Source: a bacterium | GTDB taxonomy: Bacteria > UBA8248 | Direction: 5' to 3' | Length of the DNA stretch: 64,000 nucleotides | Assembly (NCBI GenBank): GCA_965213685.1 | Contig: CBDBZY010000016.1 | Span: forward strand, 256,001 to 320,000 | In this document: positions 348 through 49,108 of the stretch, piece by piece | Layout: each line of letters begins with the position of its first letter | Numbering within the stretch: position 1 is the first letter of the stretch | Translations under genes and position numbers: made by a program | Notes under the pieces: generated by a model | Seen by the model: only the letters and a program-made list of their open reading frames with translations | Database searches by the model: none | Told to the model about the DNA's origin: nothing

Positions 348-2474
348 ATGGCTGCCTGTGGAGACACAGTTGAGAAAGCTGCCTCCTCCCTCACCCCTCG
401 AGACCTCACCCTCCCTGGTAGGTCCCTCCCTCCTGCCATGCCCCTCATCATCTCCACCCAAGACAGCTGGGACCCTCACAGCTGCAAGCTGGAGACTCAC
501 CAGCACAACAGCCAACCACAACACCTACAGATAGTCACAGACACTCTACAGCTGCTGGGAACCATCAACAAGCCTGTGGCTGTCCTGTCCATCTGTGGTC
601 CCTACCGCTCGGGGAAATCCTACTTCATCTCCCGACTGCTGGGCAGGCCTGGGGCCTTTCAGCTGGGCCACAGGATGCAAGCCTGTACACGTGGAATCTG
701 GATGGCCACCACTGTCCTGGAGTGTGAGCAGTTTGTCACAATCTTGCTGGACACGGAAGGCATTGATGCCATTAGAGCCTCTGAGACCATGGATGCAAGC
801 TTGCTGACTGTCACCACACTCCTCAGCTCCTACCTCATCTACAACTCCATGAAGGTGCCCCAGAAGGTGGACCTGGACAAGATGAGGTGCTTCACACAGC
901 TCTCCAGGTCTCTGCTCGTGCAGAAAGGGAAGTCCATGAGGGCAGAGGTCATGAGGAAGTTCTTCCCTCACTTTCTGTGGCTACTGCGAGATGTGACACT
1001 GAAAGTGACAGACAGAGCCGGCCAGACCATCTCAGCCACTGAGTTCCTGCACACTCGTGTGCTGGCATCACAATCTGGCCAGCCTACAGAGCTGGGCAAG
1101 TCTCTTTGCAGCCTCTTCCCCTCACTGGAATGCCACACTCTTCCCATGCCAAGTATCAACCCCAAAGTCATCAAGAACATTGTGGAGCAACAGGACAAGC
1201 TGAAACCAGCATTCAACAAGGCAGTGGATGAGCTGATCCAGCGAATCCTGTAGCAAGTCACGCCCAAGAAAGCCATCGATGGAGTGAGTGTGGTGGATGG
1301 CCCAGCTCTAGCTGCTCTGACCCATGGCTATGTGGATGCCATCAACACACCAGGAGCAATACCAGACCTGGAACAAGGCTGGCAGGCCGTCATCAAGTGG
1401 AAACTAAAGGAACTATCAGACAAGCTAGTGGAGGAGTATAGGAGAGAGATGGAGGAATGTTTAGCAGACAATCTTCCCATGGAGGAGAGGAATCTGATGA
1501 GAATCCACAAACAGACACTGAGCAGGAAAAGGGAGTCACTGCAGCAGGAGATCCGTCGACTCAAGCCATTGAGTTCCACCTCTGGAGACAAAGACCCAAT
1601 CCTGAGTCAACTGGAGCAGGCAATCAGTCAGACAAACGAGGGGGGCGAGGTGATTGGGGGGGTCCTGTTCCAGTTCACCACTCACAACTACTCCAAGTCC
1701 AAGCAGCAGTGTGAAGAGGTGCTGATGGAAGCAGTGAAGAGCAGTGGAATTCACAAAAAGTGTCAAGAAGCCTTCATCAACTCACAGCCACTGGACATAA
1801 TGGCAGAGATACAGGAGATTGACAGGCAATACCACAGGCAAGCTGTTGGACCAGTAGCCAGTGAAGTGCTGGAGAAAGGCCACAGAGAACTGAACCAACT
1901 GGGAGACTCACTCAAGAGAATTCCTGGCTCACCTGGTGAGGTGGAGGTCATTGGAAAGGGATCTGATCGAGTGAAGCTGAGCTGGCAACCTCCAGAGAAG
2001 AACCCTGAGGCTGCTGAGAGCTATGTGGTGTGGAAACAAGAGGAGGGGAAGCAGTGGGAGAGGCTGAGGGAGACAAAGAAGACCAAAATCCTCATCACTG
2101 GACTGAAGTCAGACACAGACTACCAGTTCAGAATCACAGCCACTAATGACCTGATTAAGAGTGTGGCTACAACACAGAACTCATATACAAGGGAGTCAAA
2201 AGCTAAGATGGGAGCTCTTGGTGGTGGTTTTGGAGCACTTGCATTTGCATTGTCCCCAGTTTTAGGTTATCAGGCTATGACTGATGGAGACATGAGTGGA
2301 GGAAAAATAGTAGCCATATCACTCGCCACTGCACCAATCAGCCTCATATGTGCTCCAGTTACTGCTACTGTGGGTGCAGTTGTGTTTGGTAGGGAAACGG
2401 TCAAGCAATGCTGCTACAGTGGAGACCTGTCCCCAGAGAGTGATGATGAGACGTCATGTGACTCCACAGAGTGA
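348..2474 (+). pseudogene. GBP-like GTPase-FN3-hydrophobic-tail gene, leader type A (MAACGDTVEK), with one premature TAG at 1251-1253
   Basis: Motifs GPYRSGKS (G1), CTRGIW (G2), LDTEG (G3) and LLRD (G4) match the guanylate-binding protein family. ORFs 348-1253 and 1284-2474 are in the same frame. Paralogs have CAG at the TAG position. Confidence 0.88.
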
Positions 2475-2899: not shown

Positions 2900-6267
<3,368 letters not shown>

Positions 6268-8700: not shown

Positions 8701-8845
8701 GATGAAAAATTCCCCCTGCTGTTACAACCCTGACATGTAATTATGGTTTGCTATGCTCAGCAATTCCATAACGTGTAGCAAGAGAGAAGCACTAGAAATC
8801 ACCACTTTCTCATTGCCTCACTCCAGTACCAAACAGCTACCAGCG

Positions 8846-10951
8846 ATGGCTAAGAAGCAGGAAGTTCCCTCCCTCACCCCTCGAGACCTCACCCTCCCTG
8901 GTAGGTCCCTCCCTCCTGCCATGCCCCTCATCATCTCCACCCAAGACAGGTGGGACCCTCACAGCTGCAAGCTGGAGACTCACCAGCACAACAGCCAACC
9001 ACAACACCTACAGCTAGTCACAGACACTCTACAACTGCTGGGAACCATCAACAAGCCTGTGGCTGTCCTGTCCATCTGTGGTCCCTACCGCTCGGGGAAG
9101 TCCTACTTCATCTCCCGACTGCTGGGCAGGCCTGGGGCCTTTCAGCTGGGCCACAGGATGCAAGCCTGTACACGTGGAATCTGGATGGCCACCACTGTCC
9201 TGGAGTGTGAGCAGTTTGTCACAATCTTGCTGGACACGGAAGGCATTGATGCCATTAGAGCCTCCGAGACCATGGATGCGAGCTTGCTGACTGTCACCAC
9301 ACTCCTCAGCTCCTACCTCATCTACAACTCCATGAAGGTGCCCCAGAAGGTGGACCTGGACAAGATGAGGTGCTTCACCCAGCTCTCCAGGTCTCTGCTT
9401 GTGCAGAAAGGGGAGTCCATGAGGGCAGAGGTCATGAGGAAGTTCTTCCCTCACTTTCTGTGGCTACTGCGAGACGTGACACTGAAAGTGACAGACAGAG
9501 CCGGCCAGACCATCTCAGCCACTGAGTTCCTGCACACTCGTGTGCTGGCCTCACAATCTGGCCAGCCTACAGAGCTGGGCAAGTCTCTTTGCAGCCTCTT
9601 CCCCTCACTGGAATGCCACACTCTTCCCATGCCAAGCATCAACCCCAATGTCATCAAGAACATTGTGGAGCAACAGGACAAGCTGAAACCAGCATTCAAC
9701 AAGGCAGTGGATGAGCTGATCCAGCGAATCCTGCAGCAAGTCACGCCCAAGAAAGCCATCGATGGAGTGAGTGTGGTGGATGGCCCAGCTCTAGCTGCTC
9801 TGACCCGTGGCTATGTGGATGCCATCAACACACCAGGAACAATACCAGACCTGGAACAAGGCTGGCAGGCCGTCATCAAGTGGAAACTGAAGGAACTATC
9901 AGACAAGCTAGTGGAGGAGTACAGGAGAGAGATGGAGGAATGTTTAGGAGAAAATCTTCCCATGGAGGAGAGGAATCTGATGAGAATCCACCAACAGACA
10001 CTGAGCAGGAAAAGAGAGTCACTGCAGCAGGAGATCCGTCGACTCAAGCCATTGAGTTCCACCTCTGGAGACAAAGACCCAATCCTGAGTCAACTGGAGC
10101 AAGCAATCAGTCAGACAAACGAGGGGGGTGAGGTGATTGGGGGGGTCCTGTTCCAGTTCACCACTCAGAATTACTCCAAGTCCAAGCAGCAGTGTGAAGA
10201 GGTGCTGATGGAAGCAGTGAAGAGCAGTGGAATTCACAAGAAGTGTCAAGAAGCCTTCATCAACTCACAGCCACTGGACATAATGGCAGAGATACAGGAG
10301 ATTGAGAGGCAATACCACAGCCAAGCTGTTGGACCAGCAGCCAGTGAAGTGCTGGAGAAAGGCCACAGAGAACTGAACCAACTGGGAGACTCACTCAAGA
10401 GAATTCCTGGCCCACCTAGTGAGGTGGAGGTCGTTGGACAGGGACCTGATCGAGTGAAGCTGAGCTGGCAACCTCCAGAGAAGAATCCTGAGGCTGCTGA
10501 GAGCTATGTGGTGTGGAAACAAGAGGGGAAGCAGTGGGAGAGGGTGAGGGAGACAAAGAAGACCAAAATCCTCATCACTGGACTGAAGTCAAACACAAAG
10601 TACCAGTTCAGAGTCACAGCCACTAATGACCTGATTAAGAGTGTGGCTGCAACACAGGGCTCAGAGACAATGTGGTCAAAAGCTAAGATGGGAGCTATTG
10701 CTGGTGGTGCAGGAGCAATTGGTCTGTCTCTGATGTCAGTTGCACTTGCTATTGTTATGAGTGATAAAAAAATGAGTATAATAATGGCAGTAGCCATATC
10801 AGTCGCCACTGCACCAATCAGCCTCATATGTGCTCCAGTTACTGCTACTGTGGGTGGAGTTTGGTTCGCTAGGGAGTTGATAAAGGAGTGTGAATGGGGA
10901 GACCTGTCCCCAGAGAGTGATGATGAGACGTCATGTGACTCCACAAAATGA
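8846..10951 (+). CDS. GBP-like GTPase-FN3-hydrophobic-tail protein, leader type B (MAKKQEVP), intact; alternative upstream ATG at 8753
   Basis: Uninterrupted ORF with GBP G1-G4 motifs, an FN3 signature (PGPP..V..LSWQPP..Y..ITGLKS.T.YQFRVTA.N) and two hydrophobic segments. Confidence 0.9.
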   Translation: MAKKQEVPSLTPRDLTLPGRSLPPAMPLIISTQDRWDPHSCKLETHQHNSQPQHLQLVTDTLQLLGTINKPVAVLSICGPYRSGKSYFISRLLGRPGAFQLGHRMQACTRGIWMATTVLECEQFVTILLDTEGIDAIRASETMDASLLTVTTLLSSYLIYNSMKVPQKVDLDKMRCFTQLSRSLLVQKGESMRAEVMRKFFPHFLWLLRDVTLKVTDRAGQTISATEFLHTRVLASQSGQPTELGKSLCSLFPSLECHTLPMPSINPNVIKNIVEQQDKLKPAFNKAVDELIQRILQQVTPKKAIDGVSVVDGPALAALTRGYVDAINTPGTIPDLEQGWQAVIKWKLKELSDKLVEEYRREMEECLGENLPMEERNLMRIHQQTLSRKRESLQQEIRRLKPLSSTSGDKDPILSQLEQAISQTNEGGEVIGGVLFQFTTQNYSKSKQQCEEVLMEAVKSSGIHKKCQEAFINSQPLDIMAEIQEIERQYHSQAVGPAASEVLEKGHRELNQLGDSLKRIPGPPSEVEVVGQGPDRVKLSWQPPEKNPEAAESYVVWKQEGKQWERVRETKKTKILITGLKSNTKYQFRVTATNDLIKSVAATQGSETMWSKAKMGAIAGGAGAIGLSLMSVALAIVMSDKKMSIIMAVAISVATAPISLICAPVTATVGGVWFARELIKECEWGDLSPESDDETSCDSTK

Positions 10952-11719: not shown

Positions 11720-12335
11720 CCAGTCCTGAGTCAACTGGAGCAAGCAATCAGTCAGACAAACGAGGGGAGTGAGGTAATTGGGGGGATCCTGTTCCAGTTC
11801 ACCACTCAGAACTACTCCAAGTCCAAGCAGCAGTGTGAAGAGGCAACCTCCGGAGAAGAACCCTGAGGCTGCTGACAGCTATGTGGTGTGGAAACAAGAG
11901 GAGGGGATGGAGTGGGAGAGGGTGAGGGAGACAAAGAAGACCAAAATCCTCATCACTGGACTGAAGTCAGGGACAAAGTACCAGTTCAGAGTCACAGCCA
12001 CTAATGACCTGATTAAGAGTGTGACTATAGCACAGGACTCACAGACATTGTGGTCAAAAGCTAAGATGGGAGCTATTGCTGGTGGTGCAGGAGCAATTGG
12101 TCTGTCTCTGATGCCAGTTGCACTTGCTATTCATGTTATGAGTGATAAAAAAATGAGTATAAAAATGGCAGTAGCCATATCAGTCGCCACTGCACCAATC
12201 AGCCTCATATGTGCTCCAGTTACTGCTACTGTGGGTGGAGTTTGGTTTGCTAGGCAAATGATCAATTTGTGCTACCACAGTGGAGACCTGTCCCCAGAGA
12301 GTGATGATGAGACGTCATGTGACTCCACAGAATGA
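11720..12335 (+). pseudogene. GBP-like 3' fragment (partial helical region, internal deletion at ~11842, FN3 + tail)
   Basis: Begins at PVLSQLEQ and jumps from GAAGAGG to CAACCTCC. The FN3 and tail are nearly identical to those of the copy at 22910. Confidence 0.85.
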
Positions 12336-14865: not shown

Positions 14866-16990
14866 ATGGCTGCCTATGGAGACACAGTTGAGAAAGCTGC
14901 CTCCTCCCTCACCCCTCGAGACCTCACCCTCCCTGGTAGGTCCCTCCCTCCTGCCATGCCCCTCATCATATCCACCCAAGACAGGTGGGACCCTCACAGC
15001 TGCAAGCTGGAGACTAACCAGCACAACAGCCAACCACAACACCTACAGATAGTCACAGACACTCTACAGCTGCTGGGAACCATCAACAAGCCTGTGGCTG
15101 TCCTGTCCATCTGTGGTCCCTACCGCTCGGGGAAATCCTACTTCATCTCCCGACTGCTGGGCAGGCCTGGGGCCTTTCAGCTGGGCCACAGGATGCAAGC
15201 CTGTACACGTGGAATCTGGATGGCCACCACTGTCCTGGAGTGTGAGCAGTTTGTCACAATCTTGCTGGACACGGAAGGCATTGATGCCATTAGAGCCTCT
15301 GAGACCATGGATGCAAGCTTGCTGACTGTCACCACACTCCTCAGCTCCTACCTCATCTACAACTCCATGAAGGTGCCCCAGAAGGTGGACCTGGACAAGA
15401 TGAGGTGCTTCACACAGCTCTCCAGGTCTCTTGCAGAAAGGGGAGTCCATGAGGGCAGAGGTCATGAGGAAGTTCTTCCCTCACTTTCTGTGGCTACTGC
15501 GAGACGTGACACTGAAAGTGACAGACAGAGCCGGCCAGACCATCTCGGCCACTGAGTTCCTGCACACTCGTGTGCTGGCATCACAATCTGGCCAGCCTAC
15601 AGAGCTGGGCAAGTCTCTTTGCAGCCTCTTCCCCTCACTGGAATGCCACACTCTTCCCATGCCAAGCATCAACCCCAAAGTCATCAAGAACATTGTGGAG
15701 CAACAGGACAAGCTGAAACCAGCATTCAACAAGGCAGTGGATCAACTGATCCAGCGAATCCTGCAGCAAGTCACGCCCAAGAAAGCCATCGATGGAGTGA
15801 GTGTGGTGGATGGCCCAGCTCTAGCTGCTCTGACCCGTGGCTATGTGGATGCCATCAACACACCAGGAGCAATACCAGACCTGGAACAAGGCTGGCAGGC
15901 CGTTATCAAGTGGAAACTGAAGGAACTATCAGACAAGCTAGTGGAGGAGTACAGGAGAGAGATGGAGGAATGTTTAGGAGACAATCTTCCCATGGAGGAG
16001 AGGAATCTGATGAGAATCCACCAACAGACACTGAACAGGAAAAGGGAGTCACTACAGCAGGAGATCCGTCGACTCAAACCATTGAGTTCCACCTCTGGAG
16101 ACAAAGACCCAATCCTGAGTCAACTGGAGCAGGCAATCAGTCAGACAAACGAGGGGGGTGAGGTGATTGGGGGGGTCCTGTTCCAGTTCACCACTCACAA
16201 CTACTCCAAGTCCAAGCAGCAGTGTGAAGAGGTGCTGATGGAAGCAGTGAAGAGCAGTCGAATTCACAAAAAGTGTCAAGAAGCCTTCATCAACTCACAA
16301 CCACTGGACATAATGGCAGAGATACAGGAGATTGACTGGCAATACCACAGGCAAGCTGTCGGACCAGCAGCCAGTGAAGTGCTGGAGAAAGGCCACAGAG
16401 AACTGAACCAACTGGGAGACTCACTCAAGAGAATTCCTGGCCCACCTAGTGAGGTGAGCGACATTGGACAGGGACCTGATCGAGTGAAGCTGAGCTGGCT
16501 ACCTCCAGAGAAGAACCCTGAGGCTGCTGAGAGCTATGTGGTGTGGAAACAAGAGGAGGGGAAGCAGTGGGAGAGGCTGAGGGAGACAAAGAAGACCAAA
16601 ATCCTCATCACTGGACTGAAGTCAGAGACAAAGTACCAGTTCAGAGTAACAGCCACTAATGACCTGATTAAGAGTGTGGATACAACACAAGCTTCATGGA
16701 CAAATGAGTCAAAAGCTAAGATAGGAGCTCTTGGTGGTGGAGTAGGAGCAGGTTTATTTCTATTGGCCCCAGTTGCAAGTACTATTTGGGCTGTCACTGG
16801 TGAAGACATGATTACAAGAAAAGGAGTAGCCATATCAGTCGCCACTGCACCACTCAGCCTCATATGTGCTCCAGTTACTGTTCCTGTGGGTGGGGTTTGG
16901 CTTGCTAGGACAGCGATCAAGGGTACGTGTGAATGGGGAGACCTGTCCCCAGAGAGTGATGATGAGACATCACGTGACTCCACAGAATGA
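14866..16990 (+). pseudogene. GBP-like gene, leader type A, frameshifted by a 5-bp deletion at ~15431
   Basis: aggtctct[gctcg]tgcag deletion relative to paralogs splits the gene into ORFs 14866-15555 and 15431-16990. Confidence 0.88.
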
Positions 16991-22739: not shown

Positions 22740-22909
22740 TTACCAATCAAAACCTACTGCCCATATAAGGATCCCCTGCTGCTACAACCCTGACATGAAT
22801 ATAATTATGGTTTGCTATGCTTAGCAATTCTATAACGTGTAGCAAGAGAGAAGCACTAGAAATCACCACTTTCTCATTGCCTCGCTCCAGTACCAAACAG
22901 CTACCAGCG

Positions 22910-25024
22910 ATGGCTAAGAAGCAGGAAGTTCCCTCCCTCACCCCTCGAGACCTCACCCTCCCTGGTAGGTCCCTCCCTCCTGCCATGCCCCTCATCATCT
23001 CCACCCAAGACAGGTGGGACCCTCACAGCTGCAAGCTGGAGACTCACCAGCACAACAGCCAACCACAACACCTACAGCTAGTCACAGACACTCTACAGCT
23101 GCTGGGAACCATCAACAAGCCTGTGGCTGTCCTGTCCATCTGTGGCCCCTACCGCTCAGGGAAGTCCTACTTCATCTCCCGACTGCTGGGCAGGCCTGGG
23201 ACCTTTCAGCTGGGCCACAGGATGCAAGCCTGTACACGTGGAATCTGGATGGCCACCACTGTCCTGGAGTGTGAGCAGTTTGCCATAATAATGCTAGATA
23301 CAGAAGGTATCGATGCCATTAGAGCCTCTGAGACCATGGCCATGAGCTTGCTGACTGTCACCACACTCCTCAGCTCCTACCTTATCTACAACTCCAAGAA
23401 GGTGCCCCAGAAGGTGGACCTGGACAAGATGAGGTGCTTCACCCAGCTCTCCAGGTCTCTGCTCATGCAGAAAGGGGAGTCCATGAGGGCAGAGATCATG
23501 AGGAAGTTCTTCCCTCACTTTCTGTGGCTACTGCGAGATGTGACACTGAAAGTGACAGACAGAGTTGGCCAGACCATCTCAGCCACTGAGTTCCTGCACA
23601 CTCGTGTGCTGGCATCAGAAGCTGGCCAGCCTACAGAGCTGGGCAAGTCTCTTTGCAGCCTCTTCCCCTCACTGGAATGCCACACTCTTCCCATGCCAAG
23701 CATCAACCCCAAAGTCATCAAGAACATTGTGGAGCAACAGGACAAGCTGAAACCAGCATTCAACAAGGCAGTGGATCAACTGATCCAGCGAATCCTGCAG
23801 CAAGTCACGCCCAAGAAAGCCATCGATGGAGTGAGTGTGGTGGATGGCCCAGCTCTAGCTGCTCTGACCCGTGGCTATGTGGATGCCATCAACACACCAG
23901 GAGCAATACCAGGCCTGGAACAAGGCTGGCAGGCTGTCATCAAGTGGAAACTGAAGGAACTATCACACAAGCTAGTGGAGGAGTACAGGAGAGAGATGGA
24001 GGAATGTTTAGGAGACAATCTTCCCATGGAGGAGAGGAATCTGATGAGAATCCACCAACAGACACTGAGCAGGAAAAGAGAGTCACTGCAGCAGGAGATC
24101 CGTCGACTCAAGCCATTGAGTTCCACCTCTGGAGACAAAGACCCAGTCCTCAGTCAACTGGAGCAGGCAATCAGTCAGACAAACGAGGGGGGTGAGGTGA
24201 TTGGGGGGGTCCTGTTCCAGTTCACCACTCACAACTACTCCAAGTCCAAGCAGCAGTGTGAAGAGGTGCTGGTGGAAGCAGTGAAGAGCAGTGGAATACG
24301 CAAGAAGTGTCAGGAAGCCTTCATCACCTCACAGCCACTGGACATAATGGCAGAGATACAGGAGATTGAGAGGCAATACCACAGGCAAGCTGTTGGACCA
24401 GCAGCCAGTGAAGTGCTGGAGAAAGGCCACAGAGAACTGAACCAGCTGGGAGACTCACTCAAGAGAATTCCTGGCCCACCTAGTGAGGTGGAGGTCGTTG
24501 GAAAGGGACCTGATCGAGTGAAGCTGAGCTGGCAACCTCCAGAGAAGAACCCTGAGGCTGCTGAGAGCTATGTGGTGTGGAAACAAGAGGAGGGGATGGA
24601 GTGGGAGAGGGTGAGGGAGACAAAGAAGACCAAAATCCTCATCACTGGACTGAAGTCAGGGACAAAGTACCAGTTCAGAGTCACAGCCACTAATGACCTG
24701 ATTAAGAGTGTGACTATAACACAGGACTCACAGACATTGTGGTCAAAAGCTAAGATGGGAGCTATTGCTGGTGGTGCAGGAGCAATTGGTCTGTCTCTGA
24801 TGCCAGTTGCACTTGCTATTCATGTTATGAGTGATAAAAAAATGAGTATAAAAATGGCAGTAGCCATATCAGTCGCCACTGCACCAATCAGCCTCATATG
24901 TGCTCCAGTTACTGCTACTGTGGGTGGAGTTTGGTTTGCTAGGCAAATGATCAATTTGTGCTACCACAGTGGAGACCTGTCCCCAGAGAGTGATGATGAG
25001 ACGTCATGTGACTCCACAGAATGA
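22910..25024 (+). CDS. GBP-like GTPase-FN3-hydrophobic-tail protein, leader type B, intact; upstream ATG at 22817
   Basis: Uninterrupted 735-aa ORF with all motifs. Confidence 0.9.
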   Translation: MAKKQEVPSLTPRDLTLPGRSLPPAMPLIISTQDRWDPHSCKLETHQHNSQPQHLQLVTDTLQLLGTINKPVAVLSICGPYRSGKSYFISRLLGRPGTFQLGHRMQACTRGIWMATTVLECEQFAIIMLDTEGIDAIRASETMAMSLLTVTTLLSSYLIYNSKKVPQKVDLDKMRCFTQLSRSLLMQKGESMRAEIMRKFFPHFLWLLRDVTLKVTDRVGQTISATEFLHTRVLASEAGQPTELGKSLCSLFPSLECHTLPMPSINPKVIKNIVEQQDKLKPAFNKAVDQLIQRILQQVTPKKAIDGVSVVDGPALAALTRGYVDAINTPGAIPGLEQGWQAVIKWKLKELSHKLVEEYRREMEECLGDNLPMEERNLMRIHQQTLSRKRESLQQEIRRLKPLSSTSGDKDPVLSQLEQAISQTNEGGEVIGGVLFQFTTHNYSKSKQQCEEVLVEAVKSSGIRKKCQEAFITSQPLDIMAEIQEIERQYHRQAVGPAASEVLEKGHRELNQLGDSLKRIPGPPSEVEVVGKGPDRVKLSWQPPEKNPEAAESYVVWKQEEGMEWERVRETKKTKILITGLKSGTKYQFRVTATNDLIKSVTITQDSQTLWSKAKMGAIAGGAGAIGLSLMPVALAIHVMSDKKMSIKMAVAISVATAPISLICAPVTATVGGVWFARQMINLCYHSGDLSPESDDETSCDSTE

Positions 25025-25846: not shown

Positions 25847-27578
25847 CTGTATCCACTTCAGGAGAGAAGCTTCATAGATGCCATAGGGTGGGTAGTATAC
25901 ACAACATTTTGGCTATTATGCCCTCCTCAGTGTGATGTACAAACACGAGAAAGAGGTGCTCCATATTGAGGGTGACTATTAATGTCTGAGCCAGCATGCC
26001 AGGTACTACAGAGCAAGGTTAATTAGGATGCGGAGATAAAATTATGACAAGCATTGTAACATGCTGACAGGAGTTGTGCATGTACAATGCATCACAGACT
26101 ATCGACGCTGAGGTTCATGCCTGTGAGATGAGAGGTCTCCAGGAGCCTTTATATCCACTTGCTCTCCCTATAAAACTCCTGGAGACCTCTCATCCCAATG
26201 TGATAGCGAAGGAACCCCCCAGAGTGAAATTTGGGGTTCCCGGGAATAGCATTCTCTCCAGAGCGCTAGCAAGGCACACACACATCCACTGTAGCACGAC
26301 TGCACCCCATGCCACAGTATCATACATGCCACAATAAACAGAACTCAGAACCACTAATCGTAACTGAAAGTAGTTTACCAAAAATTGCGAGTAGGGGCAG
26401 AGCCTGGGAACGAGCTAGGCTAACAGGGCCTCCCTCTGCTCGAGCAAAGTTGCGCGACCTTGACCTCCGCGGCTTAGCTATGGCGGACGTCAAAAACTAT
26501 GCGCAGTGAAGTATGCGCTTAATAACGAGGTGCGCCTAACAACCGGTGTTTACGGTATTTTCGGAGTTCAAAAATCACTCAACAATATCGCGCGTGTGGG
26601 TCTGAGGACGGGCTAATCCGAACATACACGAAGGTACTATATATATTTCGCCAGGTCGCTTACGTGGCCACTCGGGCCCCCGTATGAATGCGCGCGTGAT
26701 ACAAGTGTACAGCACTCAACTAGCTGGGTAAGAACTTTTTGGACTGTGCAAGTGCTCTTCAAACTCACCTTACTGCAAGAAATCAAAAGAGGTGGCTAAC
26801 GTGCTGCGGTGGCTGACGGGATGTGATATCTTAGACGTGAGCAGTCACTGAGAGATTTTCGTAACTGAACATGCGCACCTTACATCATCATTACACAATA
26901 TCACGTAAGCAATATCCGCCACAGAGAAGCGAACATACGTTACCATACATGGAGTACCACACTCCAAATGCATCACACAGGGCAGCTATAATTATGTGTA
27001 CATGGTACTGCTAGACACATACATACAATATTGAGGAAGGTGAATTGACGTACATGTACAATACAACCTGCTCAGCTTACATTGTCAAACAATGGTCTGT
27101 TCAACTTCAACCCTCTTCAGACATAATTGTTATATCGTTTTTCACTTCACATGATCATGCAGCTCAAAGCATGTCATGTAACTGCAAGTTCATAACTCTC
27201 TAGCTTTTGCCTTGATGGGAGACAAAGTACCTGAACAAGTTCTGCCTGTCCATACTATGAGGAATAGCATATTTCCCTGCATGTATTCAGTAAACATGAT
27301 AGTATGAGAGCGCGTGTATGTGTGTTGCTACAAGATAAGAAGAGTTTCCATACAGCAGTCCTCCTTGTCAAAATCACAGAAGCAGCAGCTCTATAGCCTT
27401 GAGACTCAGCTATACTTTTGGAAACATTGCATGAATGAAGTATCCCATACAACAATATATACACACACTACTCCATTTTGGACATGCACATTGTACTCTA
27501 CTCACTAGCTACTGGTGTCATGTGTACTGCAATGTATATACAGCCCAACTTCCATTCACAGCACAAGTAGTAGGGTAG

Positions 27579-27892
27579 CAGCCACTAATGACATGATTAA
27601 AAGTGTGGCTGCAACGCAAGATTCATGGACAAATGATTCAAAAACTTCAGCAGTAGCTTATGGTGGTATTATAGGAAGTTTGTGCTCACTGGCCCCAGCT
27701 ACACTTGCTATTAGTAGGTTTGGGTTGAGTACAGGAGAAACAGTGACCATATCAGTTGCCACTGCACCTATCAGCCTCATATGTGTTCCAGTTACTGCTC
27801 CTGTGTTTGCAGTTTGGGCTGCTAGGGACATGATCGAGAGAGAGTGTGACTGGGGAGACCTGTCCCCAGAGAGTGATGATGAGATGTCATGA
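27579..27892 (+). pseudogene. Diverged GBP-like tail-only remnant fused to a type-A upstream region
   Basis: 27250-27560 matches the type-A upstream region and then jumps to ATNDMIKSV...WGDLSPESDDEMS*. The GTPase and helical regions are deleted. Confidence 0.8.
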
Positions 27893-29465: not shown

Positions 29466-31289
29466 ATGGCTGCCTCTGGAGCCACAGCTGAGGATGTTAG
29501 TGCCTCCTCCCTCACCCCTCGAGACCTCACCCTCCCTGGTAGGTCCCTCCCTCCTGCCATGCCCCTCATCATCTCCACCCAAGACAGGTGGGACCCTCAC
29601 AGCTGCAAGCTGGAGACTCACCAGCACAACAGCCAACCACAATACCTACAGCTAGTCACAGACACTCTACAACTGCTGGGAACCATCAACAAGCCTGTGG
29701 CTATCCTGTCCATCTGTGGCCCCTACCGCTCAGGGAAGTCCTACTTCATCTCCCGACTGCTGGGCAGGCCTGGGGCCTTTCAGCTGGGCCACAGGATGCA
29801 AGCCTGTACACGTGGAATCTGGATGGCCACCACTGTCCTGGAGTGTGAGCAGTTTGCCATAATCCTGCTGGACACGGAAGGCATTGATGCCATTGGAGCC
29901 TCCGAGACCATGGCCATGAGCTTGCTGACTGTCACCACACTCCTCAGCTCCTACCTCATCTACAACTCCAAGAAGGTGCCCCAGAAGGTGGACCTGGACA
30001 AGATGAGGTGCTTCACCCGGCTCTCCAGGTCTCTGCTCGTGCAGAAAGGGGAGTCCATGAGGGCAGAGGTCATGAGGGAGTTCTTCCCTCACTTTCTGTG
30101 GCTACTGCGAGATGTGACACTGACTGTGACAGACAGAGCCGGCCAGACCATCTCAGCCACTGAGTTCCTGCACACTCGTGTGCTGGCATCACAGTCTGGC
30201 CAGCCTACAGAGCTGGGCAAGTCTCTTTGCAGCCTCTTCCCCTCACTGGAATGCCACACTCTTCCTATTCCAAGCATCAACCCCAAAGTCATCAAGAACA
30301 TTGTGGAGCAACAGGACAAGCTGAAACCAGCATTCAACAAGGCAGTGGATGAGCTGATCCAGCGAATCCTGCAGCAAGTCACGCCCAAGAAAGCCATCGA
30401 TGGAGTGAGTGTGGTGGATGGCCCGGCTCTAGCTGCTCTGACCCGTGGGTATGTGGATGCCATCAACACACCAGGAGCAATACCAGACCTGGAACAAGGC
30501 TGGCAGGCCATCATCAAGTGGAAACTGAAGGAACTATCAGACAAGCTAGTGGAGGAGTACAGGAGAGAGATGGAGGAATGTTTAGGAGACAATCTTCCCA
30601 TGGAGGAGAGGAATCTGATGAGAATCCACCAACAGACACTGAGCAGGAAAAGGGAGTCACTGCAGCAGGAGATCCGTCGACTCAAGCCATTGAGTTCCAC
30701 CTCTGGAGACAAACACCCAGTCCTGAGTCAACTGGAGCAGGCAATCAGTCAGACAAACGAGGGGGGTGAGGTGATTGGGGGGGTCCTGTTCCGCTGGCAA
30801 CCTCCAGAGAAGAACCCTGAGGCTGCTGAGAGCTATGTGGTGTGGAAACAAGAGGAGGGGAAGCAGTGGGAGAGGGTGAGGGAGACAAAGAAGACCAAAA
30901 TCCTCATCACTGGACTGAAGTCAGACACAGACTACCAGTTCAGAATCACAGCCACTAATGACCTGATTAAGAGTGTGGCTGCAACACATGACTCATGTAC
31001 AATGGAGTCAAAAGCTAAGATGGGAGCTCTTGCTGGTGGTGTAGGAGCAATTACATTGTCAATGATGCCAGTTGCAGCAGCTATTGCGAATGTGACTGCT
31101 GAAGACATGAGTGGAGGAAAAATAGTAGCCATATCAGTCGCCACTTTACCAATTAGCCTCATATGTGCTCCAGTTATTGCTACTGTGGGTGGAGTTTGGA
31201 TTGCTAGGGAAGTGATCAAGGACGGATGCTACAGTGGAGACCTGTCCCCAGAGAGTGATGATGAGACGTCATGTGACTCCACAGAATGA
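29466..31289 (+). CDS. GBP-like gene, leader type C (MAASGATAEDVS), with an in-frame 309-bp deletion removing the distal helical region and the start of FN3
   Basis: Open ORF. The junction GGVLF-R-WQPP at ~30791 corresponds to loss of positions 1672-1980 of copy 1. It may be non-functional. Confidence 0.75.
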   Translation: MAASGATAEDVSASSLTPRDLTLPGRSLPPAMPLIISTQDRWDPHSCKLETHQHNSQPQYLQLVTDTLQLLGTINKPVAILSICGPYRSGKSYFISRLLGRPGAFQLGHRMQACTRGIWMATTVLECEQFAIILLDTEGIDAIGASETMAMSLLTVTTLLSSYLIYNSKKVPQKVDLDKMRCFTRLSRSLLVQKGESMRAEVMREFFPHFLWLLRDVTLTVTDRAGQTISATEFLHTRVLASQSGQPTELGKSLCSLFPSLECHTLPIPSINPKVIKNIVEQQDKLKPAFNKAVDELIQRILQQVTPKKAIDGVSVVDGPALAALTRGYVDAINTPGAIPDLEQGWQAIIKWKLKELSDKLVEEYRREMEECLGDNLPMEERNLMRIHQQTLSRKRESLQQEIRRLKPLSSTSGDKHPVLSQLEQAISQTNEGGEVIGGVLFRWQPPEKNPEAAESYVVWKQEEGKQWERVRETKKTKILITGLKSDTDYQFRITATNDLIKSVAATHDSCTMESKAKMGALAGGVGAITLSMMPVAAAIANVTAEDMSGGKIVAISVATLPISLICAPVIATVGGVWIAREVIKDGCYSGDLSPESDDETSCDSTE

Positions 31290-32655: not shown

Positions 32656-32959
32656 CCTGTGTATTGTGTCAATGTACCTATATGTACACATACTTAACTA
32701 TGACATCATCTCTATAATACTGTTTACTCTGATTACATGACTGTGCATAATGATTATTTCAAACATTGCCATCATAGCTAATACTGACCAATCATATTCC
32801 ATTATCCATACATGGGCACCATGATTCCACTTATGCTTAAAACATATCATGAATATGATGACACCTCCTATGCTCAGCAGTTACCATAACAACGTACAGA
32901 AAAACAAGGTCCTTGTTCTCCATTGCGTTGCCTTACTGGAGCACCCTGGGAAGCCCACA

Positions 32960-35092
32960 ATGGCTCAAAATCCAGACGTTCCCTCCCTTACCCCTCGAGA
33001 CCTCACCCTCCCTGGTAGGTCCCTCCCTCCTGCCATGCCCCTCATCATCTCCACCCAAGACAGGTGGGACCCTCACAGCTGCAAGCTGGAGACTCACCAG
33101 CACAACAGCCAGCCACAACACCTACAGCTAGTCACAGACACTCTACAACTGCTGGGAACCATCAACAAGCCTGTGGCTGTCCTGTCCATCTGTGGCCCCT
33201 ATCGCTCGGGGAAGTCCTACTTCATCTCCCGACTGCTGGGCAGGCCTGGGGCCTTTCAGCTGGGCCACAGTATGCGAGCCTGTACACGTGGAATCTGGAT
33301 GGCCACCACTGTCCTGGAGTGTGAGCAGTTTGCCACAATCCTGCTGGATACGGAAGGCATCGATGCCATTGGAGCCTCCGAGACCATGGCCATGAGCTTG
33401 CTGACTGTCACCACACTCCTCAGCTCCTACCTCATCTACAACTCCAAGAAGGTGCCCCAGAAGGTGGACCTGGACAAGATGAGGTGCTTCACCCAGCTCT
33501 CCAGGTCTCTGCTTGTGCAGAAAGGGGAGTCCATGAGGGCAGAGGTCATGAGGAAGTTCTTCCCTCACTTTCTGTGGCTACTGCGAGACGTGACACTGAC
33601 TGTGACAGACAGAGCCGGCCAGACCATCTCAGCCACTGAGTTCCTGCACACTCGTGTGCTGGCATCCGAAGCTGGCCAGCCTACAGAGCTGGGCAAGTCT
33701 CTTTGCAGCCTCTTCCCCTCACTGGAGTGCCACACTCTTCCCATGCCAAGCATCAACCCCAAAGTCATCAAGAACATTGTGGAGCAACAGGACAAGCTGG
33801 AACCAGCATTCAACAAGGCAGTGGATGAGCTGATCCAGCGAATCCTGCAGCAAGTCACACCCAAGAAAGCCATCGATGGAGTGAATGTGGTGGATGGCCC
33901 AGCTCTCGCTGCTCTGACCCGTGGGTATGTGGATGCCATCAACACACCAGGAGCAATACCAGACCTGGAACAAGGCTGGCAGGCCGTCATCAAGTGGAAA
34001 CTGAAGGAACTGTCAGACAAGCTAGTGGAGGAGTACAGGAGAGAGATGGAGGAATGTTTAGGAGACAATCTTCCCATGGAGGAGAGGAATCTGATGAGAA
34101 TCCACAAACAGACACTGAGCAGGAAAAGGGAGTCACTGCAGCAGGAGATCCGTCGACTCAAGCCATTGAGTTCCACCTCTGGAGACAAAGACCCAGTCCT
34201 CAGTCAACTGGAGCAGGCAATCAGTCAGACAAATGAGGGGGGTGAGGTGATTGGGGGGGTCCTGTTCCAGTTCACCACTCACAACTACTCCAAGTCCAAG
34301 CAGCAGTGTGAAGAGGTGCTGATGGAAGCAGTGAAGAGCAGTGAAATTCACAAGAAGTGTCAAGAAGCCTTCATCAACTCACAGCCACTGGACATAATGG
34401 CAGAGATACAGGAGATTGAGTGGCAATACCACAGGCAAGCTGTCGGACCAGCAGCCAGTGAAGTGCTGGAGAAAGGCCTCAGAGAACTGAACCAACTGGG
34501 AGACTCACTCAAGAGAATTCCTGGCCCACCTCGTGAGGTGAGGGACATTGGACGAGGACCTGATCGAGTGAAGCTGAGCTGGAAACCTCCAGAGAAGAAC
34601 CCTGAGGCTGCTGAGAGCTATGTGGTGTGGAAACAAGAGGAGGGGAAGCAGTGGGAGAGGGTGAGGGAGACAAAGAAGACCAAAATCCTCATCACTGGAC
34701 TGAAGTCAGGGACATACTACCAGTTCAGAGTCACAGCCACTAATGACCTGATTAAGAGTGTGGATACAACACAGCGCTCAGAGACAAATGTGTCAAAAGC
34801 TAAGATGGGAGCTATTGGTGGTGGTTTTGGAGCACTTGGATTTGCAGTGTCCCCAGTTTTAGGTTATTTGGCTATGACTAATGGAGACATGAGTACAAGA
34901 AAAATAGTAGCCATATCAGTCGCCACTGCACCAATCAGCCTCATATGTGCTCCAGTTACTGCTACTGTGGGTGCAGTTTGGTTTGCTAGGGAAGAGATCA
35001 AGGACTGGTGCTACAGTGGAGACCTGTCCCCAGAGAGTGATGATCTGTCCCCAGAGAGTGATGATGAAACATCATGTGACTCCACAGAATGA
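32960..35092 (+). CDS. GBP-like GTPase-FN3-hydrophobic-tail protein, leader type D (MAQNPDVP), intact; upstream ATG at 32849
   Basis: Uninterrupted ORF with a 21-bp duplication (LSPESDD x2) at 35024-35065. Confidence 0.9.
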   Translation: MAQNPDVPSLTPRDLTLPGRSLPPAMPLIISTQDRWDPHSCKLETHQHNSQPQHLQLVTDTLQLLGTINKPVAVLSICGPYRSGKSYFISRLLGRPGAFQLGHSMRACTRGIWMATTVLECEQFATILLDTEGIDAIGASETMAMSLLTVTTLLSSYLIYNSKKVPQKVDLDKMRCFTQLSRSLLVQKGESMRAEVMRKFFPHFLWLLRDVTLTVTDRAGQTISATEFLHTRVLASEAGQPTELGKSLCSLFPSLECHTLPMPSINPKVIKNIVEQQDKLEPAFNKAVDELIQRILQQVTPKKAIDGVNVVDGPALAALTRGYVDAINTPGAIPDLEQGWQAVIKWKLKELSDKLVEEYRREMEECLGDNLPMEERNLMRIHKQTLSRKRESLQQEIRRLKPLSSTSGDKDPVLSQLEQAISQTNEGGEVIGGVLFQFTTHNYSKSKQQCEEVLMEAVKSSEIHKKCQEAFINSQPLDIMAEIQEIEWQYHRQAVGPAASEVLEKGLRELNQLGDSLKRIPGPPREVRDIGRGPDRVKLSWKPPEKNPEAAESYVVWKQEEGKQWERVRETKKTKILITGLKSGTYYQFRVTATNDLIKSVDTTQRSETNVSKAKMGAIGGGFGALGFAVSPVLGYLAMTNGDMSTRKIVAISVATAPISLICAPVTATVGAVWFAREEIKDWCYSGDLSPESDDLSPESDDETSCDSTE

Positions 35093-35529: not shown

Positions 35530-37773
<2,244 letters not shown>

Positions 37774-39952: not shown

Positions 39953-40174
39953 CCTGTGTATTGTGCCATTATCTGTACTACCACTATTACATCATGGTTT
40001 AAAATGACCAATCAAAACCTACTGCCCATATAAGGATCCCCTGCTGCTACAACCCTGACATGAATATAATTATGGTTTGCTATGCTCAGCAATTCCATAA
40101 CGTGTAGCAAGAGAGAAGCACTAGAAATCACCACTTTCTCATCGCCTCACTCCAGTACCAAACAGCTACCAGCG

Positions 40175-42292
40175 ATGGCTAAGAAGCAGGAAGTTCCCTC
40201 TCTCACCCCTCGAGACCTCACCCTCCCTGGTAGGTCCCTCCCTCCTGCCATGCCCCTCATCATCTCCACCCAAGACAGGTGGGACCCTCACAGCTGCAAG
40301 CTGGAGACTCACCAGCACAACAGCCAACCACAACACCTACAGCTAGTCACAGACACTCTGCAACTGCTGGGAACCATCAACAAGCCTGTGGCTGTCCTGT
40401 CCATCTGTGGCCCCTACCGCTCGGGGAAGTCCTACTTCATCTCCCGACTGCTGGGCAGGCCTGGGGCCTTTCAGCTGGGCCACAGGATGCAAGCCTGTAC
40501 ACGTGGAATCTGGATGGCCACCACTGTCCTGGAGTGTGAGCAGTTTGTCACAATCCTGCTGGACACAGAAGGCATCGATGCCATTAGAGCCTCCGAGACC
40601 ATGGATGCAAGCTTGCTGACTGTCACCACACTCCTCAGCTCCTACCTCATCTACAACTCCATGAAGGTGCCCCAGAAGGTGGATCTGGACAAGATGAGGT
40701 GCTTCACCCAGCTCTCCAGGTCTCTGCTCGTGCAGAAAGGGGAGTCCATGAGGGCAGAGGTCATGAGGAAGTTCTTCCCTCACTTTCTGTGGCTACTGCG
40801 AGATGTGACACTGAAAGTGACAGACAGAGCCGGCCAGACCATCTCAGCCACTGAGTTCCTGCACACTCGTGTGCTGGCATCACAATCTGGCCAGCCTACA
40901 GAGCTGGGCAAGTCTCTTTGCAGCCTCTTCCCCTCACTAGAATGCCACACTCTTCCCATGCCAAGCATCAACCCCAAAGTCATCAAGAACATTGTGGAGC
41001 AACAGGACAAGCTGAAACCAGCATTCAACAAGGCAGTGGATGAACTGATCCAGCGAATCCTGCAGCAAGTCACACCCAAGAAAGCCATCAATGGAGTGAG
41101 TGTGGTGGATGGCCCAGCTCTAGCTGCTCTGACCCGTGGCTATGTGGATGCCATCAACACACCAGGAGCAATACCAGACCTGGAACAAGGCTGGCAGGCC
41201 GTCATCAAGTGGAAACTGAAGGAACTGTCAGACAAGCTAGTGGAGGAGTACAGGAGAGAGATGGAGAAATGTTTAGGAGACAATCTTCCCATGGAGGAGA
41301 GGAATCTGATGAGAATCCACAAACAGACACTGAGCAGGAAAAGGGATTCACTGCAGCAGGAGATCCATCGGCTCAAACCATTGAGTTCCACCTCTGGAGA
41401 CAAAAACCCAATCCTGATCATGAGTCAACTGGAGCAGACAATCAGTCAGACAAACGAGGGGGGTGAGGTGATTGGGGGGGTCCTGTTCCAGTTCACCACT
41501 CAGAACTATTACAAGTCCAAGCAGCAGTGTGAAGAGGTGCTGATGGAAGCAGTGAAGAGCAGTGGAATTCACAAGAAGTGTCAGGAAGCCTTCATCAACT
41601 CACAGCCACTGGACATAATGGCAGAGATATGGGATATTCATACACAATACTGCAAGCAAGCTGTCGGACCAGCAGCCAATGAAGTACTGGAGAAAGGTCA
41701 CAGAGAACTGAACCAACTGGGAGACTCACTCAAGAGAATTCCTGGCCCACCTAGTGAGGTGGAGGTCATTGGAGAGGGATCTGATCGAGTGAAGCTGAGC
41801 TGGCAACCTCCAGAGAAGAACCCTGAGGCTGCTGAGAGCTATGTGGTGTGGAAACAAGAGAAGGGGAAGCAGTGGGAGAGGGTGAGGGAGACAAAGAAGA
41901 CCAAAATCCTCATCACTGGACTGAAGTCAGGGACAGTGTACCAGTTCAGAGTCACAGCCACTAATGACCTGATTAAGAGTGTGGCTACAACACAGTGCTC
42001 ATTGACAAAGGAGTCAAAAGCTATGATGGGAGCTATTGGTGGTGGTGCAGGAGCACTTGCATTTGCATTGTCCCCAGTTTTAGGTTATGTGGCTATGACT
42101 GAAGGAGGCATGAGTACAAGAAAAATAGTAGCCATATCAGTCGCCACTGCACCAATCAGCCTCATATGTGCTCCAGTTACTGCTACTGTGGGTGGAGTTT
42201 GGGCTGCTAGGGAAATGATCAAGGATGAGCGTGACTGGGGAGACCTGTCCCCAGGGAGTGATGATGAGACGTCATGTGACTCCACAGAATGA
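40175..42292 (+). CDS. GBP-like GTPase-FN3-hydrophobic-tail protein, leader type B, intact; upstream ATG at 40082
   Basis: Uninterrupted 736-aa ORF with a 2-codon insertion (PILIMSQ). Confidence 0.9.
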   Translation: MAKKQEVPSLTPRDLTLPGRSLPPAMPLIISTQDRWDPHSCKLETHQHNSQPQHLQLVTDTLQLLGTINKPVAVLSICGPYRSGKSYFISRLLGRPGAFQLGHRMQACTRGIWMATTVLECEQFVTILLDTEGIDAIRASETMDASLLTVTTLLSSYLIYNSMKVPQKVDLDKMRCFTQLSRSLLVQKGESMRAEVMRKFFPHFLWLLRDVTLKVTDRAGQTISATEFLHTRVLASQSGQPTELGKSLCSLFPSLECHTLPMPSINPKVIKNIVEQQDKLKPAFNKAVDELIQRILQQVTPKKAINGVSVVDGPALAALTRGYVDAINTPGAIPDLEQGWQAVIKWKLKELSDKLVEEYRREMEKCLGDNLPMEERNLMRIHKQTLSRKRDSLQQEIHRLKPLSSTSGDKNPILIMSQLEQTISQTNEGGEVIGGVLFQFTTQNYYKSKQQCEEVLMEAVKSSGIHKKCQEAFINSQPLDIMAEIWDIHTQYCKQAVGPAANEVLEKGHRELNQLGDSLKRIPGPPSEVEVIGEGSDRVKLSWQPPEKNPEAAESYVVWKQEKGKQWERVRETKKTKILITGLKSGTVYQFRVTATNDLIKSVATTQCSLTKESKAMMGAIGGGAGALAFALSPVLGYVAMTEGGMSTRKIVAISVATAPISLICAPVTATVGGVWAAREMIKDERDWGDLSPGSDDETSCDSTE

Positions 42293-48892: not shown

Positions 48893-49087
48893 TGTAGTAT
48901 ATTGCAGTGTAATCATCTCTCATTGTGATGTCACGTTTGTTTCCTCTATTATGCATGTCTATTTCCTGTATTGCATTTGTACTGTATATAAGTGCTGTGT
49001 TGTATTGTTGTAGTGGGAGTTGTCATAAGTCAGTTGTCAGTCCTTGCGCGCTCCTAGCTGCCAACGAACGAACCCGAGTACACGACA
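48893..49087 (+). repeat. 5' LTR
   Basis: tgtagtat...cacgaca; direct repeat of 53186-53380. Confidence 0.95.
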
Positions 49088-49090
49088 TAT

Positions 49091-49108
49091 TGGCGACGAG
49101 GATGGGAT
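49091..49108 (+). other. Primer binding site, complementary to the tRNA-Ser(GCU) 3' end
   Basis: TGGCGACGAGGATGGGAT is the reverse complement of ATCCCATCCTCGTCGCCA, the metazoan tRNA-Ser(GCU) 3' terminus as recalled. Confidence 0.8.

Follow-up and report, generated by a model that had tools for sequence, protein, structure and literature searches.

The 64,000-nucleotide stretch of DNA analyzed here (the window; C16:256001-320000, where C16 is contig CBDBZY010000016.1 of assembly GCA_965213685.1) lies within a tandem array of genes encoding GBP-type GTPases that carry a fibronectin type III (FN3) domain followed by two hydrophobic C-terminal segments. A preliminary description of the window had reported that a few FN3 codons are hypervariable within an almost invariant scaffold and had ascribed this to strong positive selection on a ligand- or antagonist-binding surface patch. 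The observation is real and statistically robust, and amino-acid-changing diversity at the variable codons is about 10 times the neutral level. We consider it probable that the pattern reflects diversifying selection on a cytosolic, membrane-proximal face of FN3 and on the adjoining membrane anchor, with conflict with microbes as its presumed driver; the ligand- or antagonist-binding role of the variable face is putative.

The copy to which the preliminary description referred (positions 385-2474, + strand) comprises a G domain, a helical domain, FN3 (1920-2204), a hydrophobic hairpin (about 2205-2420) and an acidic tail, and is interrupted by a TAG at 1251-1253, where the other copies have CAG. 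Residues are numbered after the intact reference copy of 735 aa (22817-25024, + strand), which has its G domain at residues 85-331, the beginning of a GBP_C domain at 339-417, FN3 at 551-645 (24467-24751), the hairpin with a juxtamembrane part at 646-718 (24752-24970) and the acidic tail at 24971-25021. All the motifs quoted earlier were found in the window in the right frame and register, namely 7/7 strand-A motifs, 7/7 of the KSxTxY type and 8/8 at the FN3 end. The codon series given for residue 637 was also confirmed, with AAC in copy 385-2474 (2178-2180) and GCT in a frameshifted copy (16691-16693). In a codon alignment of 25 copies and 722 columns, from which the frameshifted copy 14903-16990 and all truncated, deleted or split copies were left out and in which two in-frame stops were masked as NNN, this codon is GAC in 16 copies, AAC in 3, CAC in 2 and GGC, CGC, TGC and TAC in one each. 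Of the two neighboring codons that had been called invariant, ACA is so in 25/25 copies and TCA nearly so (23/25). The changes fall, as stated, at codon positions 1 and 2, where the mean nucleotide diversity (pi) over 13 FN3 codons was 0.487 and 0.380, compared with 0.205 at position 3.

Between 9 and 13 of the 95 FN3 codons are variable. The nine top codons, located in copy 385-2474 from the motif positions, span 1935-2192 on the + strand and encode residues 556, 563 and 565 (1935-1937, 1956-1958 and 1962-1964), 615, 617 and 633 (2112-2114, 2118-2120 and 2166-2168) and 637, 639 and 641 (2178-2180, 2184-2186 and 2190-2192). Variation at a few FN3 codons in a conserved scaffold was upheld, and it extends beyond FN3 into the hairpin (residues 646-718), which varies more strongly. 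Residue variability is low over residues 39-550, rises at a few FN3 columns and peaks in residues 646-718, with a mean column entropy of up to 1.26 bits; most of the GTPase domain has values of 0.03-0.2.

The pooled ratio of non-synonymous to synonymous rates (dN/dS, method of Nei and Gojobori, NG86) was 0.33 for the GTPase domain, 0.36 for the helical domain, 1.30 for FN3 (4.2 for its last 13 codons), 1.77 for the first transmembrane helix (TM1) with the loop, 1.48 for the second (TM2) and 1.30 for the post-TM2 segment. The acidic, serine-rich tail gave 0.22 and is the most conserved part after the G domain. Site models were then fitted using our own implementation of the Goldman and Yang (GY94/F3x4) likelihood, with relative branch lengths fixed from an IQ-TREE nucleotide tree and one free scale factor. 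For residues 551-735 the one-ratio model M0 gave an omega (dN/dS) of 1.79, and M2a (log-likelihood, lnL, -3919.09) was strongly preferred to M1a (lnL -4104.02; twice the difference, 2dlnL, 369.9). The positive class of M2a had an omega of 7.96 on 23.7% of sites, and the naive empirical Bayes (NEB) posterior exceeded 0.95 in 30 of 208 columns. FN3 alone, on its own tree, gave a 2dlnL of 158.6 for M1a/M2a with an omega of 11.5 on 11.5% of sites, and the sites with NEB > 0.95 under M2a on this FN3-specific tree were 556, 563, 565, 615, 617, 633, 637, 639 and 641. The M7/M8 comparison on a codon alignment, which the preliminary description had proposed, gave a 2dlnL of 162.2 on FN3, and M8a/M8 gave 158.6; the positive class of M8 had an omega of about 11.5 on 11.5% of sites. 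Without the nine top codons the FN3 statistic was only 12.7, and what signal was left came from 560, 634, 642 and 621. Residues 646-718 alone gave a 2dlnL of 162.6 and 14 sites with NEB > 0.95. The fitted omega classes ranged from 6.5 to 11.5, and the M0 omega of the control regions was 0.34 (GTPase) and 0.42 (helical domain).

A per-site test of the fixed effects likelihood type (FEL-like), which has low power, yielded beta > alpha (p < 0.05, uncorrected) for 28 of the 208 columns, seven of them in FN3; the estimate for D732 was ignored as a numerical failure. With regard to a dN/dS above 1 at the noted sites, on which the preliminary claim turned, the site models give a positive class in FN3, and the per-site test reaches uncorrected p < 0.05 at four of the nine top sites (556, 565, 633 and 639).

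Recombination in the array is pervasive. In approximately unbiased (AU) tests each of three large partitions rejected the trees of the other two and of the whole gene (p from 1e-114 to 1.7e-3), the trees of other partitions being all rejected at p <= 2.2e-4, and FN3 and residues 646-718 mutually rejected each other's trees (p ~2e-6). The four-gamete test was failed by 35-51% of informative site pairs, and the 13 variable FN3 sites form 23 distinct haplotypes among the 25 copies. Since tree-based omega values may be inflated under such recombination, tree-free tests were added, with four-fold degenerate sites as the neutral proxy. Within FN3, mean four-fold pi was 0.051 for the 11 usable codons immediately next to a variable one and 0.040 elsewhere (26 sites). 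Residues 39-550 gave 0.044 (223 sites), and conserved codons of residues 646-718 gave 0.029 (22 sites). Four-fold diversity is therefore flat beside the variable codons, indicating that the local mutation rate is not raised. When all sites of a region were counted, without picking of sites, and compared with four-fold sites by Fisher's test, three or more nucleotide states were present at 2/290 four-fold sites of the gene, at 16/190 first and second positions of FN3 (p = 1.6e-5), at 48/144 of residues 646-718 (about 2205-2420 in copy 385-2474; p = 1.5e-23) and at 9/1024 of residues 39-550 (p = 0.55). A conservative minimum-state count gave a ratio of 0.30 for the GTPase domain and 1.33 for the anchor (residues 646-718; p = 0.05). 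At the nine FN3 codons 43 state changes are non-synonymous and 4 are synonymous; for the remaining 86 codons of the domain the numbers are 45 and 26. The alternation of variable and invariant codons is too finely spaced for conversion tracts to explain. The site models and the tree-free four-fold comparisons agree, in support of the strong positive selection that had been proposed for a few FN3 codons.

The position of the variable sites was examined in an AlphaFold2 (AF2) model built on an alignment of 53 relatives (mean predicted local distance difference test score, pLDDT, 71.5). Over residues 551-640 the 10-residue blocks of FN3 have a mean pLDDT of 89-95 and form seven strands, A (556-563), B (567-573), C (584-591), C' (597-602), E (606-610), F (617-625) and G (634-639). 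Long helices run up to residue 549 ahead of FN3, and two long helices (644-673 and 678-715) follow it. According to this strand assignment, sites 556, 559, 560, 563 and 565 lie in strand A and the AB turn, 615 and 617 in the EF loop and at the start of strand F, and 633, 634, 637, 639, 641 and 642 at the end of the FG loop, in strand G and in the four-residue linker to the first membrane helix. Strands B, C, C' and E and the BC, CC' and C'E loops contain none of these 13 sites, and there is almost no variation in the BC and FG loops, which lie at the opposite pole. In a canonical FN3 domain strands A and G are neighbors on one edge of the sandwich, and the AB and EF loops are at the C-terminal pole. 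The model thus supports a location of most variable sites at the FN3 pole that would run straight into the membrane helix, in line with the membrane-proximal position suggested earlier, as only four residues separate the last residue of strand G (639) from the beginning of the first hydrophobic helix (644). The variable columns mix charged, aromatic and small side chains, which would not be tolerable at a core position. The variable module continues into both membrane helices, the connecting loop and the juxtamembrane helix, where it exceeds the variability of FN3. The physico-chemical character of these parts is kept, TM1 being hydrophobic in 25/25 copies and the connecting loop hydrophilic.

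Family membership was judged against Pfam PF02263 and PF02841 (GBP, dynamin superfamily) and PF00041 (fn3). The GBP G-domain profile matched residues 85-331 with 131.6 bits (cut-off 21.1), GBP_C matched residues 339-417 with 40.9 bits (cut-off 24.3) over profile positions 2-78 of 297, and a single fn3 domain was found at residues 554-628 with 43.5 bits (cut-off 25). RHD3_GTPase, with 15.9 bits, stayed under its cut-off of 42.4, and an NCBIfam scan of the protein gave no match, as expected for a eukaryotic protein. The closest solved structures by sequence were GBP1, GBP2 and GBP5 (E 7e-31 to 1e-26), atlastin-1 following at E ~1e-8; for the FN3 domain the best sequence matches were intracellular FN3 domains from titin, myomesin and MyBP-C. 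Foldseek searches agreed, with GBP5 and GBP1 as best matches of the N-terminal part, together with RNF112 and atlastin, and with FN3con and titin FN3 for the FN3 part (TM-score normalised to the target 0.76-0.84). Across 53 relatives no variation occurs at G110, G115, K116, S117, T140, D161, T162, G164 and D241, and very little at R113 and R240; we take these residues to be the nucleotide-binding motifs, that is, the P-loop with GKS, the switch-I Thr, DxxG and RD.

In the five intact window copies the only hydrophobic windows (19 residues, mean Kyte-Doolittle value >= 1.4) are the two C-terminal segments, in 5/5 copies. Hydrophobicity of the first 60 residues never exceeds 0.93, and no signal peptide was found by this criterion in any of the five. 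The C terminus is an acidic tail with no CaaX box. Anchoring would run through the two hydrophobic helices as a C-terminal hairpin. With no signal peptide and a C-terminal hairpin, FN3 is most likely cytosolic, and the variable face would then not be an extracellular receptor surface. In the predicted arrangement the GTPase, FN3 and the acidic tail most likely all face the cytosol, with the C-terminal pole of FN3 on the membrane. Two further features of this end of the protein were observed. Cysteines lie right behind the second helix, where acylation sites could be located, and a tail motif, GDL-x-x-x-S-acidic, is kept across distant relatives; we assume that it resembles a phospho-acidic sorting or regulatory signal.

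The same pattern is present in relatives from other assemblies, where the array family is abundant (206 matches in an earlier search). A profile search gave 119 matches, 116 of them nameless; the three weakest had no FN3 and included both named proteins, a coral GBP and a sea-cucumber GBP (30-31% identity, no fn3). In 52 relatives from other assemblies the nine FN3 sites had an entropy of 2.86 bits compared with 1.47 for the rest of FN3, and residues 646-718 had 2.70 bits compared with 0.81 for the GTPase domain. Within three paralog groups (8, 15 and 4 proteins) the 13 sites exceeded the rest of FN3 (Mann-Whitney p = 7e-5, 1.4e-6 and 3e-4, respectively). Residues 646-718 ranked first in variability in the groups with 8 and 4 members; in the group with 15, only the 13 FN3 sites varied more. 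This replication was made at the level of protein sequences alone. The length of the inter-helix loop varies between relatives. Relatives with 71-95% identity to the array over residues 39-550 have only 26-77% over residues 633-718, and sharing of cassette types across species, looked for among the relatives, was not found. The divergence suggests that cassettes are still being replaced rapidly, rather than that old types are held in common. A separate observation in one paralog group is an EF-loop insert of up to about 22 residues, which occurs in seven proteins (P0041, P0044, P0047, P0054, P0055, P0058 and P0074).

The array gene family appears to be unannotated. In the literature searched, with supplements outside its scope, neither a GBP-FN3-transmembrane family nor its codon-level hypervariability nor sponge GBPs were found. 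A search for independent DNA arrays returned three weak loci in metagenome contigs and none in genome contigs. A search for the FN3-hairpin-tail module among 1.84 billion representatives was dominated by giant multi-FN3 proteins and uninformative on the hairpin, and a word-based search with residues 630-735 returned 8 proteins only, all of the same family, and is neutral on the presence of the module in other architectures. In the ESM Atlas all scores were <=0.81; septin/AIG1 plus fn3 clusters in molluscs and chordates are leads only.

These results can be brought together as follows. Each array gene encodes a protein in which a GBP-type GTPase and helical domain are followed by one FN3 domain, two closely spaced hydrophobic helices taken to be a membrane hairpin, and the conserved acidic Ser-rich tail. 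The selected module would comprise FN3 strand A with the AB turn, the EF loop, strand G, TM1, the inter-helix loop and the juxtamembrane helix after TM2, and the GTPase, the helical domain, the FN3 core and the tail would be held under purifying selection. Gene conversion or unequal crossing-over among copies would homogenise the scaffold and reshuffle the variable segments, so that nearly every copy has its own combination. The most likely driver of the diversification, we infer, is conflict with microbes, either through recognition of pathogen, symbiont or phagosome membrane targets or, alternatively, through escape from microbial antagonists of a membrane-anchored GBP.

Several points weigh against this interpretation. 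The M1a/M2a comparison was also significant in the control regions, at a much smaller size (30.5 for 297 GTPase codons and 23.4 for 215 helical-domain codons), and some inflation of the site-model statistics is possible. The codon models were our own implementation, with NEB rather than Bayes empirical Bayes (BEB) posteriors, and tree-based models assume that there is no recombination, which is pervasive in this array. The FEL-like test was not significant at 563, 615, 617, 637 and 641. The minimum-state ratio for the whole of FN3 was 0.83 and thus not above 1 (p = 0.84). Exposure and three-dimensional clustering of the sites were argued from the strand assignments alone. Positions 615 and 617 are, we assume, the usual free positions of the FN3 EF-loop consensus, and part of the signal there may come from tolerance. 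Finally, helical-face periodicity of the variation is weak, with p = 0.039 for residues 700-718 and p = 0.13 for TM1.

A more specific form of conflict with microbes is a germline repertoire, in which the FN3 face and hairpin would be a specificity module, the inter-helix loop would face the lumen of the phagosome or symbiont vacuole, and conversion, possibly with orphan cassettes, would recombine the module; we regard this form as possible but doubtful. The main rival to microbe conflict is paralog-specific assembly, in which the FN3 A-G edge and the Gly/Ala-rich membrane helices would serve oligomerisation and would diversify so that co-expressed paralogs pair only with their own kind or in set combinations, independently of any microbial ligand. 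Both GBPs and atlastins function in dimeric or oligomeric form (for GBP1, see the PDB titles 'GBP1 dimer' and 'membrane-bound GBP1 oligomer'), the variable sites lie on an edge strand pair and on membrane helices rich in small residues, and the near-private FN3 haplotypes as well as the weak 100-degree periodicity over residues 700-718 would fit such self-association. An intramembrane packing interface, however, does not explain why the hydrophilic inter-helix loop is hypervariable and varies in length, and the periodicity of TM1 is not significant. We therefore judge self-association to be unlikely as the cause of the diversification.

The remaining explanations are of a different kind. Under relaxed constraint, tolerant surface or lipid-facing codons would drift neutrally while gene conversion keeps the rest uniform. 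The pervasive recombination, the whole-FN3 state-count ratio, the presumed freedom of 615 and 617 and the chemically mild hydrophobic swaps of TM1 all agree with it. Yet the neutral rate is a ceiling for drift, and the first two positions of the variable codons have a pi of 0.38-0.49 compared with 0.051 at flanking four-fold sites; variable codons are interspersed with invariant ones at a spacing of 3 nucleotides, finer than conversion tracts could separate; and omega classes of 6.5-11.5, together with a cassette that diverges far faster than the rest of the protein among relatives, make relaxed constraint improbable. Locally targeted mutagenesis, that is, hypermutation or templated diversification of the segment, would account for the sharp localisation, and the window contains both a reverse transcriptase (49107-53057) and an orphan cassette that could act as a donor. 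This enzyme, however, is part of an ordinary Ty3/gypsy-type long terminal repeat (LTR) element, which also encodes gag, protease, RNase H and integrase; there is no local rise in synonymous diversity (pi 0.051 compared with 0.044, and 0.029 at conserved codons of residues 646-718); and the differences are germline ones between paralogs and not within a copy, so that we consider this mechanism very improbable. Least credible is an artefact in which mis-assembled or chimeric contigs of the metagenome bin mimic paralog variation. The bin does mix 49 high-GC contigs with 22 of GC below 0.55, but the array lies on a single contig of 526,799 bases without N, 23 of 26 copies keep open frames, the stretch is partly present in 20 public runs from 11 studies, and related arrays occur in many other assemblies.

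GBPs are central effectors of vertebrate cell-autonomous immunity. The array proteins resemble vertebrate GBP1, GBP2 and GBP5 in G-domain family, in best sequence and fold matches and in forming a clustered multigene family; vertebrate GBPs are described as clustered multigene families with gain and loss (PMC10859415, PMC8863968). On the other hand, they match just the first 78 of 297 GBP_C positions and continue with another helical region, FN3 and a two-helix anchor, and their genes lack a CaaX box, are intronless and belong to a sponge host, to which interferon is not applicable. For positive selection at the end of a GBP that targets the membrane, the closest precedent is the polybasic motif of primate GBPs, which reportedly adjoins the membrane anchor. 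This short, fast-evolving C-terminal motif is described as needed for bacterial detection (Kohler et al. 2020, PMC7240152). It consists of a few basic residues, whereas the array has an FN3 face and a hairpin of about 70 residues, diversified between the paralogs of one genome.

Atlastin/Sey1-RHD3 proteins and RNF112 share with the array proteins a GBP-like G domain, a helical domain, two close hydrophobic helices and a cytosolic tail. Atlastins are single-copy housekeeping fusogens with conserved anchors; they have no FN3, and the array G domain is far nearer to GBPs (E ~1e-30) than to atlastin (~1e-8). In the B30.2 variable loops of TRIM5alpha and in the transmembrane helix of tetherin, positive selection arises from pathogen contact or antagonism. 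The array resembles both in that a cytosolic or membrane protein evolves fast at a few positions of a beta-sandwich surface or membrane helix, but the folds are unrelated and the signal in those proteins is between orthologs of species, while here it is among about 26 paralogs of one array. Templated or targeted hypermutation systems raise mutation at all codon positions of their target and use a dedicated reverse transcriptase or template; the array shows no such rise, and the only reverse transcriptase is that of the LTR retrotransposon. Innate-immune gene families have expanded in sponges and in other invertebrates. Sponge NLRs are described as a putative intracellular immune protein that has multiplied extensively within its lineage (PMC3879445); their domain family differs from that of the array GBPs. 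The function of invertebrate GBPs is called unclear in a 2022 review (PMC9005921).

Such a pattern is the hallmark of a molecular arms race, seen here in one of the earliest-branching animal lineages. The array shows that an early-branching animal has expanded a GBP-type GTPase into dozens of paralogs fused to a new FN3 and hairpin anchor, with selection focused on the membrane-proximal face and anchor. This focus suggests that the end of GBPs which targets the membrane has long been a battleground with microbes. The array is also a candidate for how sponges, with their dense microbial communities, discriminate or control intracellular microbes. If the germline repertoire were real, cell-autonomous discrimination of food, symbiont and pathogen, or escape from antagonists, would be coupled directly to a GBP effector, and the array would represent a class of variable intracellular immune receptor-effector that our literature searches did not find described.

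The bin from which the contig comes, recorded as a bacterial genome, has 71 contigs, 49 of them with a GC content of 0.61-0.69 and 22, including C16, with a GC content below 0.55 (0.33-0.54; about 5 Mb). We read the low-GC contigs as host contamination of the bacterial genome record. Proteins of metazoan type are encoded in the window, among them a Ty3/gypsy-type gag-pol, pieces with PIH1 domains and a PTB domain resembling that of ICAP-1, and parts of the gene stretch are present in contigs of 20 public runs from 11 studies, 8 of the 20 being labelled 'sponge metagenome'. C16 was therefore treated as animal, namely sponge host, DNA that had been binned with a bacterial genome. An Rfam scan of the whole window gave no match.

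By tblastn the array comprises 43 segments on C16 between 178,741 and 375,530 (about 200 kb) and includes 26 near-full-length intronless copies, 23 of which have open stop-to-stop frames of 702-788 codons; the three broken ones all lie inside the window. All the window copies are on the + strand. The intact ones are long single-exon frames of 732-747 aa and comprise, in addition to the reference copy, those at 8753-10951 (732 aa), 32849-35092 (747 aa), 40082-42292 (736 aa) and 60806-63007 (733 aa). Besides the TAG-broken copy 385-2474, the near-full copies at 14903-16990 and 43665-45797 are frameshifted and interrupted by an in-frame stop (44877-44879), respectively. A truncated 3' fragment at 11720-12335, in which a helical-domain piece is joined to FN3 from strand B onwards, hairpin and tail, matches the reference copy at its 3' end with 99.4% identity, and a second copy of this fragment (63722-64000) is clipped by the window end. 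The copy at 29466-31289 has an internal deletion that removed the last part of the helical domain as well as FN3 strands A and B but left a 607-aa frame open. The copy at 48005-54621 is split into a 5' part up to 48892 and a 3' part from 53383 by an LTR retrotransposon (48893-53380) with a Ty3/gypsy-type gag-pol open reading frame (ORF) of 1316 aa and a PNMA-like gag match. Its two 195-nt LTRs are 100% identical, which suggests a very recent insertion.

The orphan 3' cassette of the window (27572-27892, + strand) has an open frame encoding FN3 strands F-G, hairpin and tail. It is one of three near-identical cassettes, the other two lying outside the window at C16:194015-194350 and C16:213098-213433, and their TM1 type is absent from all 25 aligned genes. 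These cassettes could be conversion donors, alternative 3' exons or remnants. At the 3' end of the reference copy, contigs of other runs leave 24701-24961 uncovered, and three runs join 24709 to 24970/24971, which skips 260-261 bases corresponding to the FN3 end and hairpin; a fourth run has similar joints from 24658/24663. The joint may represent a cassette replaced by a divergent one or skipped, for example in an anchor-less isoform. The 5' ends of the array copies have at least three unrelated N-terminal leaders followed by a sharp common boundary (nucleotide 116 of the reference frame; leader 22817-22931 in the window), and contigs of other runs lose similarity at the same boundary (loose end 22932). 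The leader differences could reflect alternative first exons or leader swapping.

In the intervals between GBP copies the opposite strand repeatedly carries fragments of ORFs with PIH1 N-terminal and PIH1 CS-like domains, and a single ICAP-1-like PTB ORF is present in the window; these PIH1 and PTB pieces are at 2900-5308, 35857-36522 and 57139-57906 on the - strand and at 59411-60154 on the + strand. The duplicated array unit seems to include pieces of other genes. Outside the array, tblastn found 10 segments on a second contig, C64, corresponding to one frameshifted copy and one distant relative; the frameshifted, dispersed copy is at C64:1589043-1590945, and C64 is also a low-GC contig.

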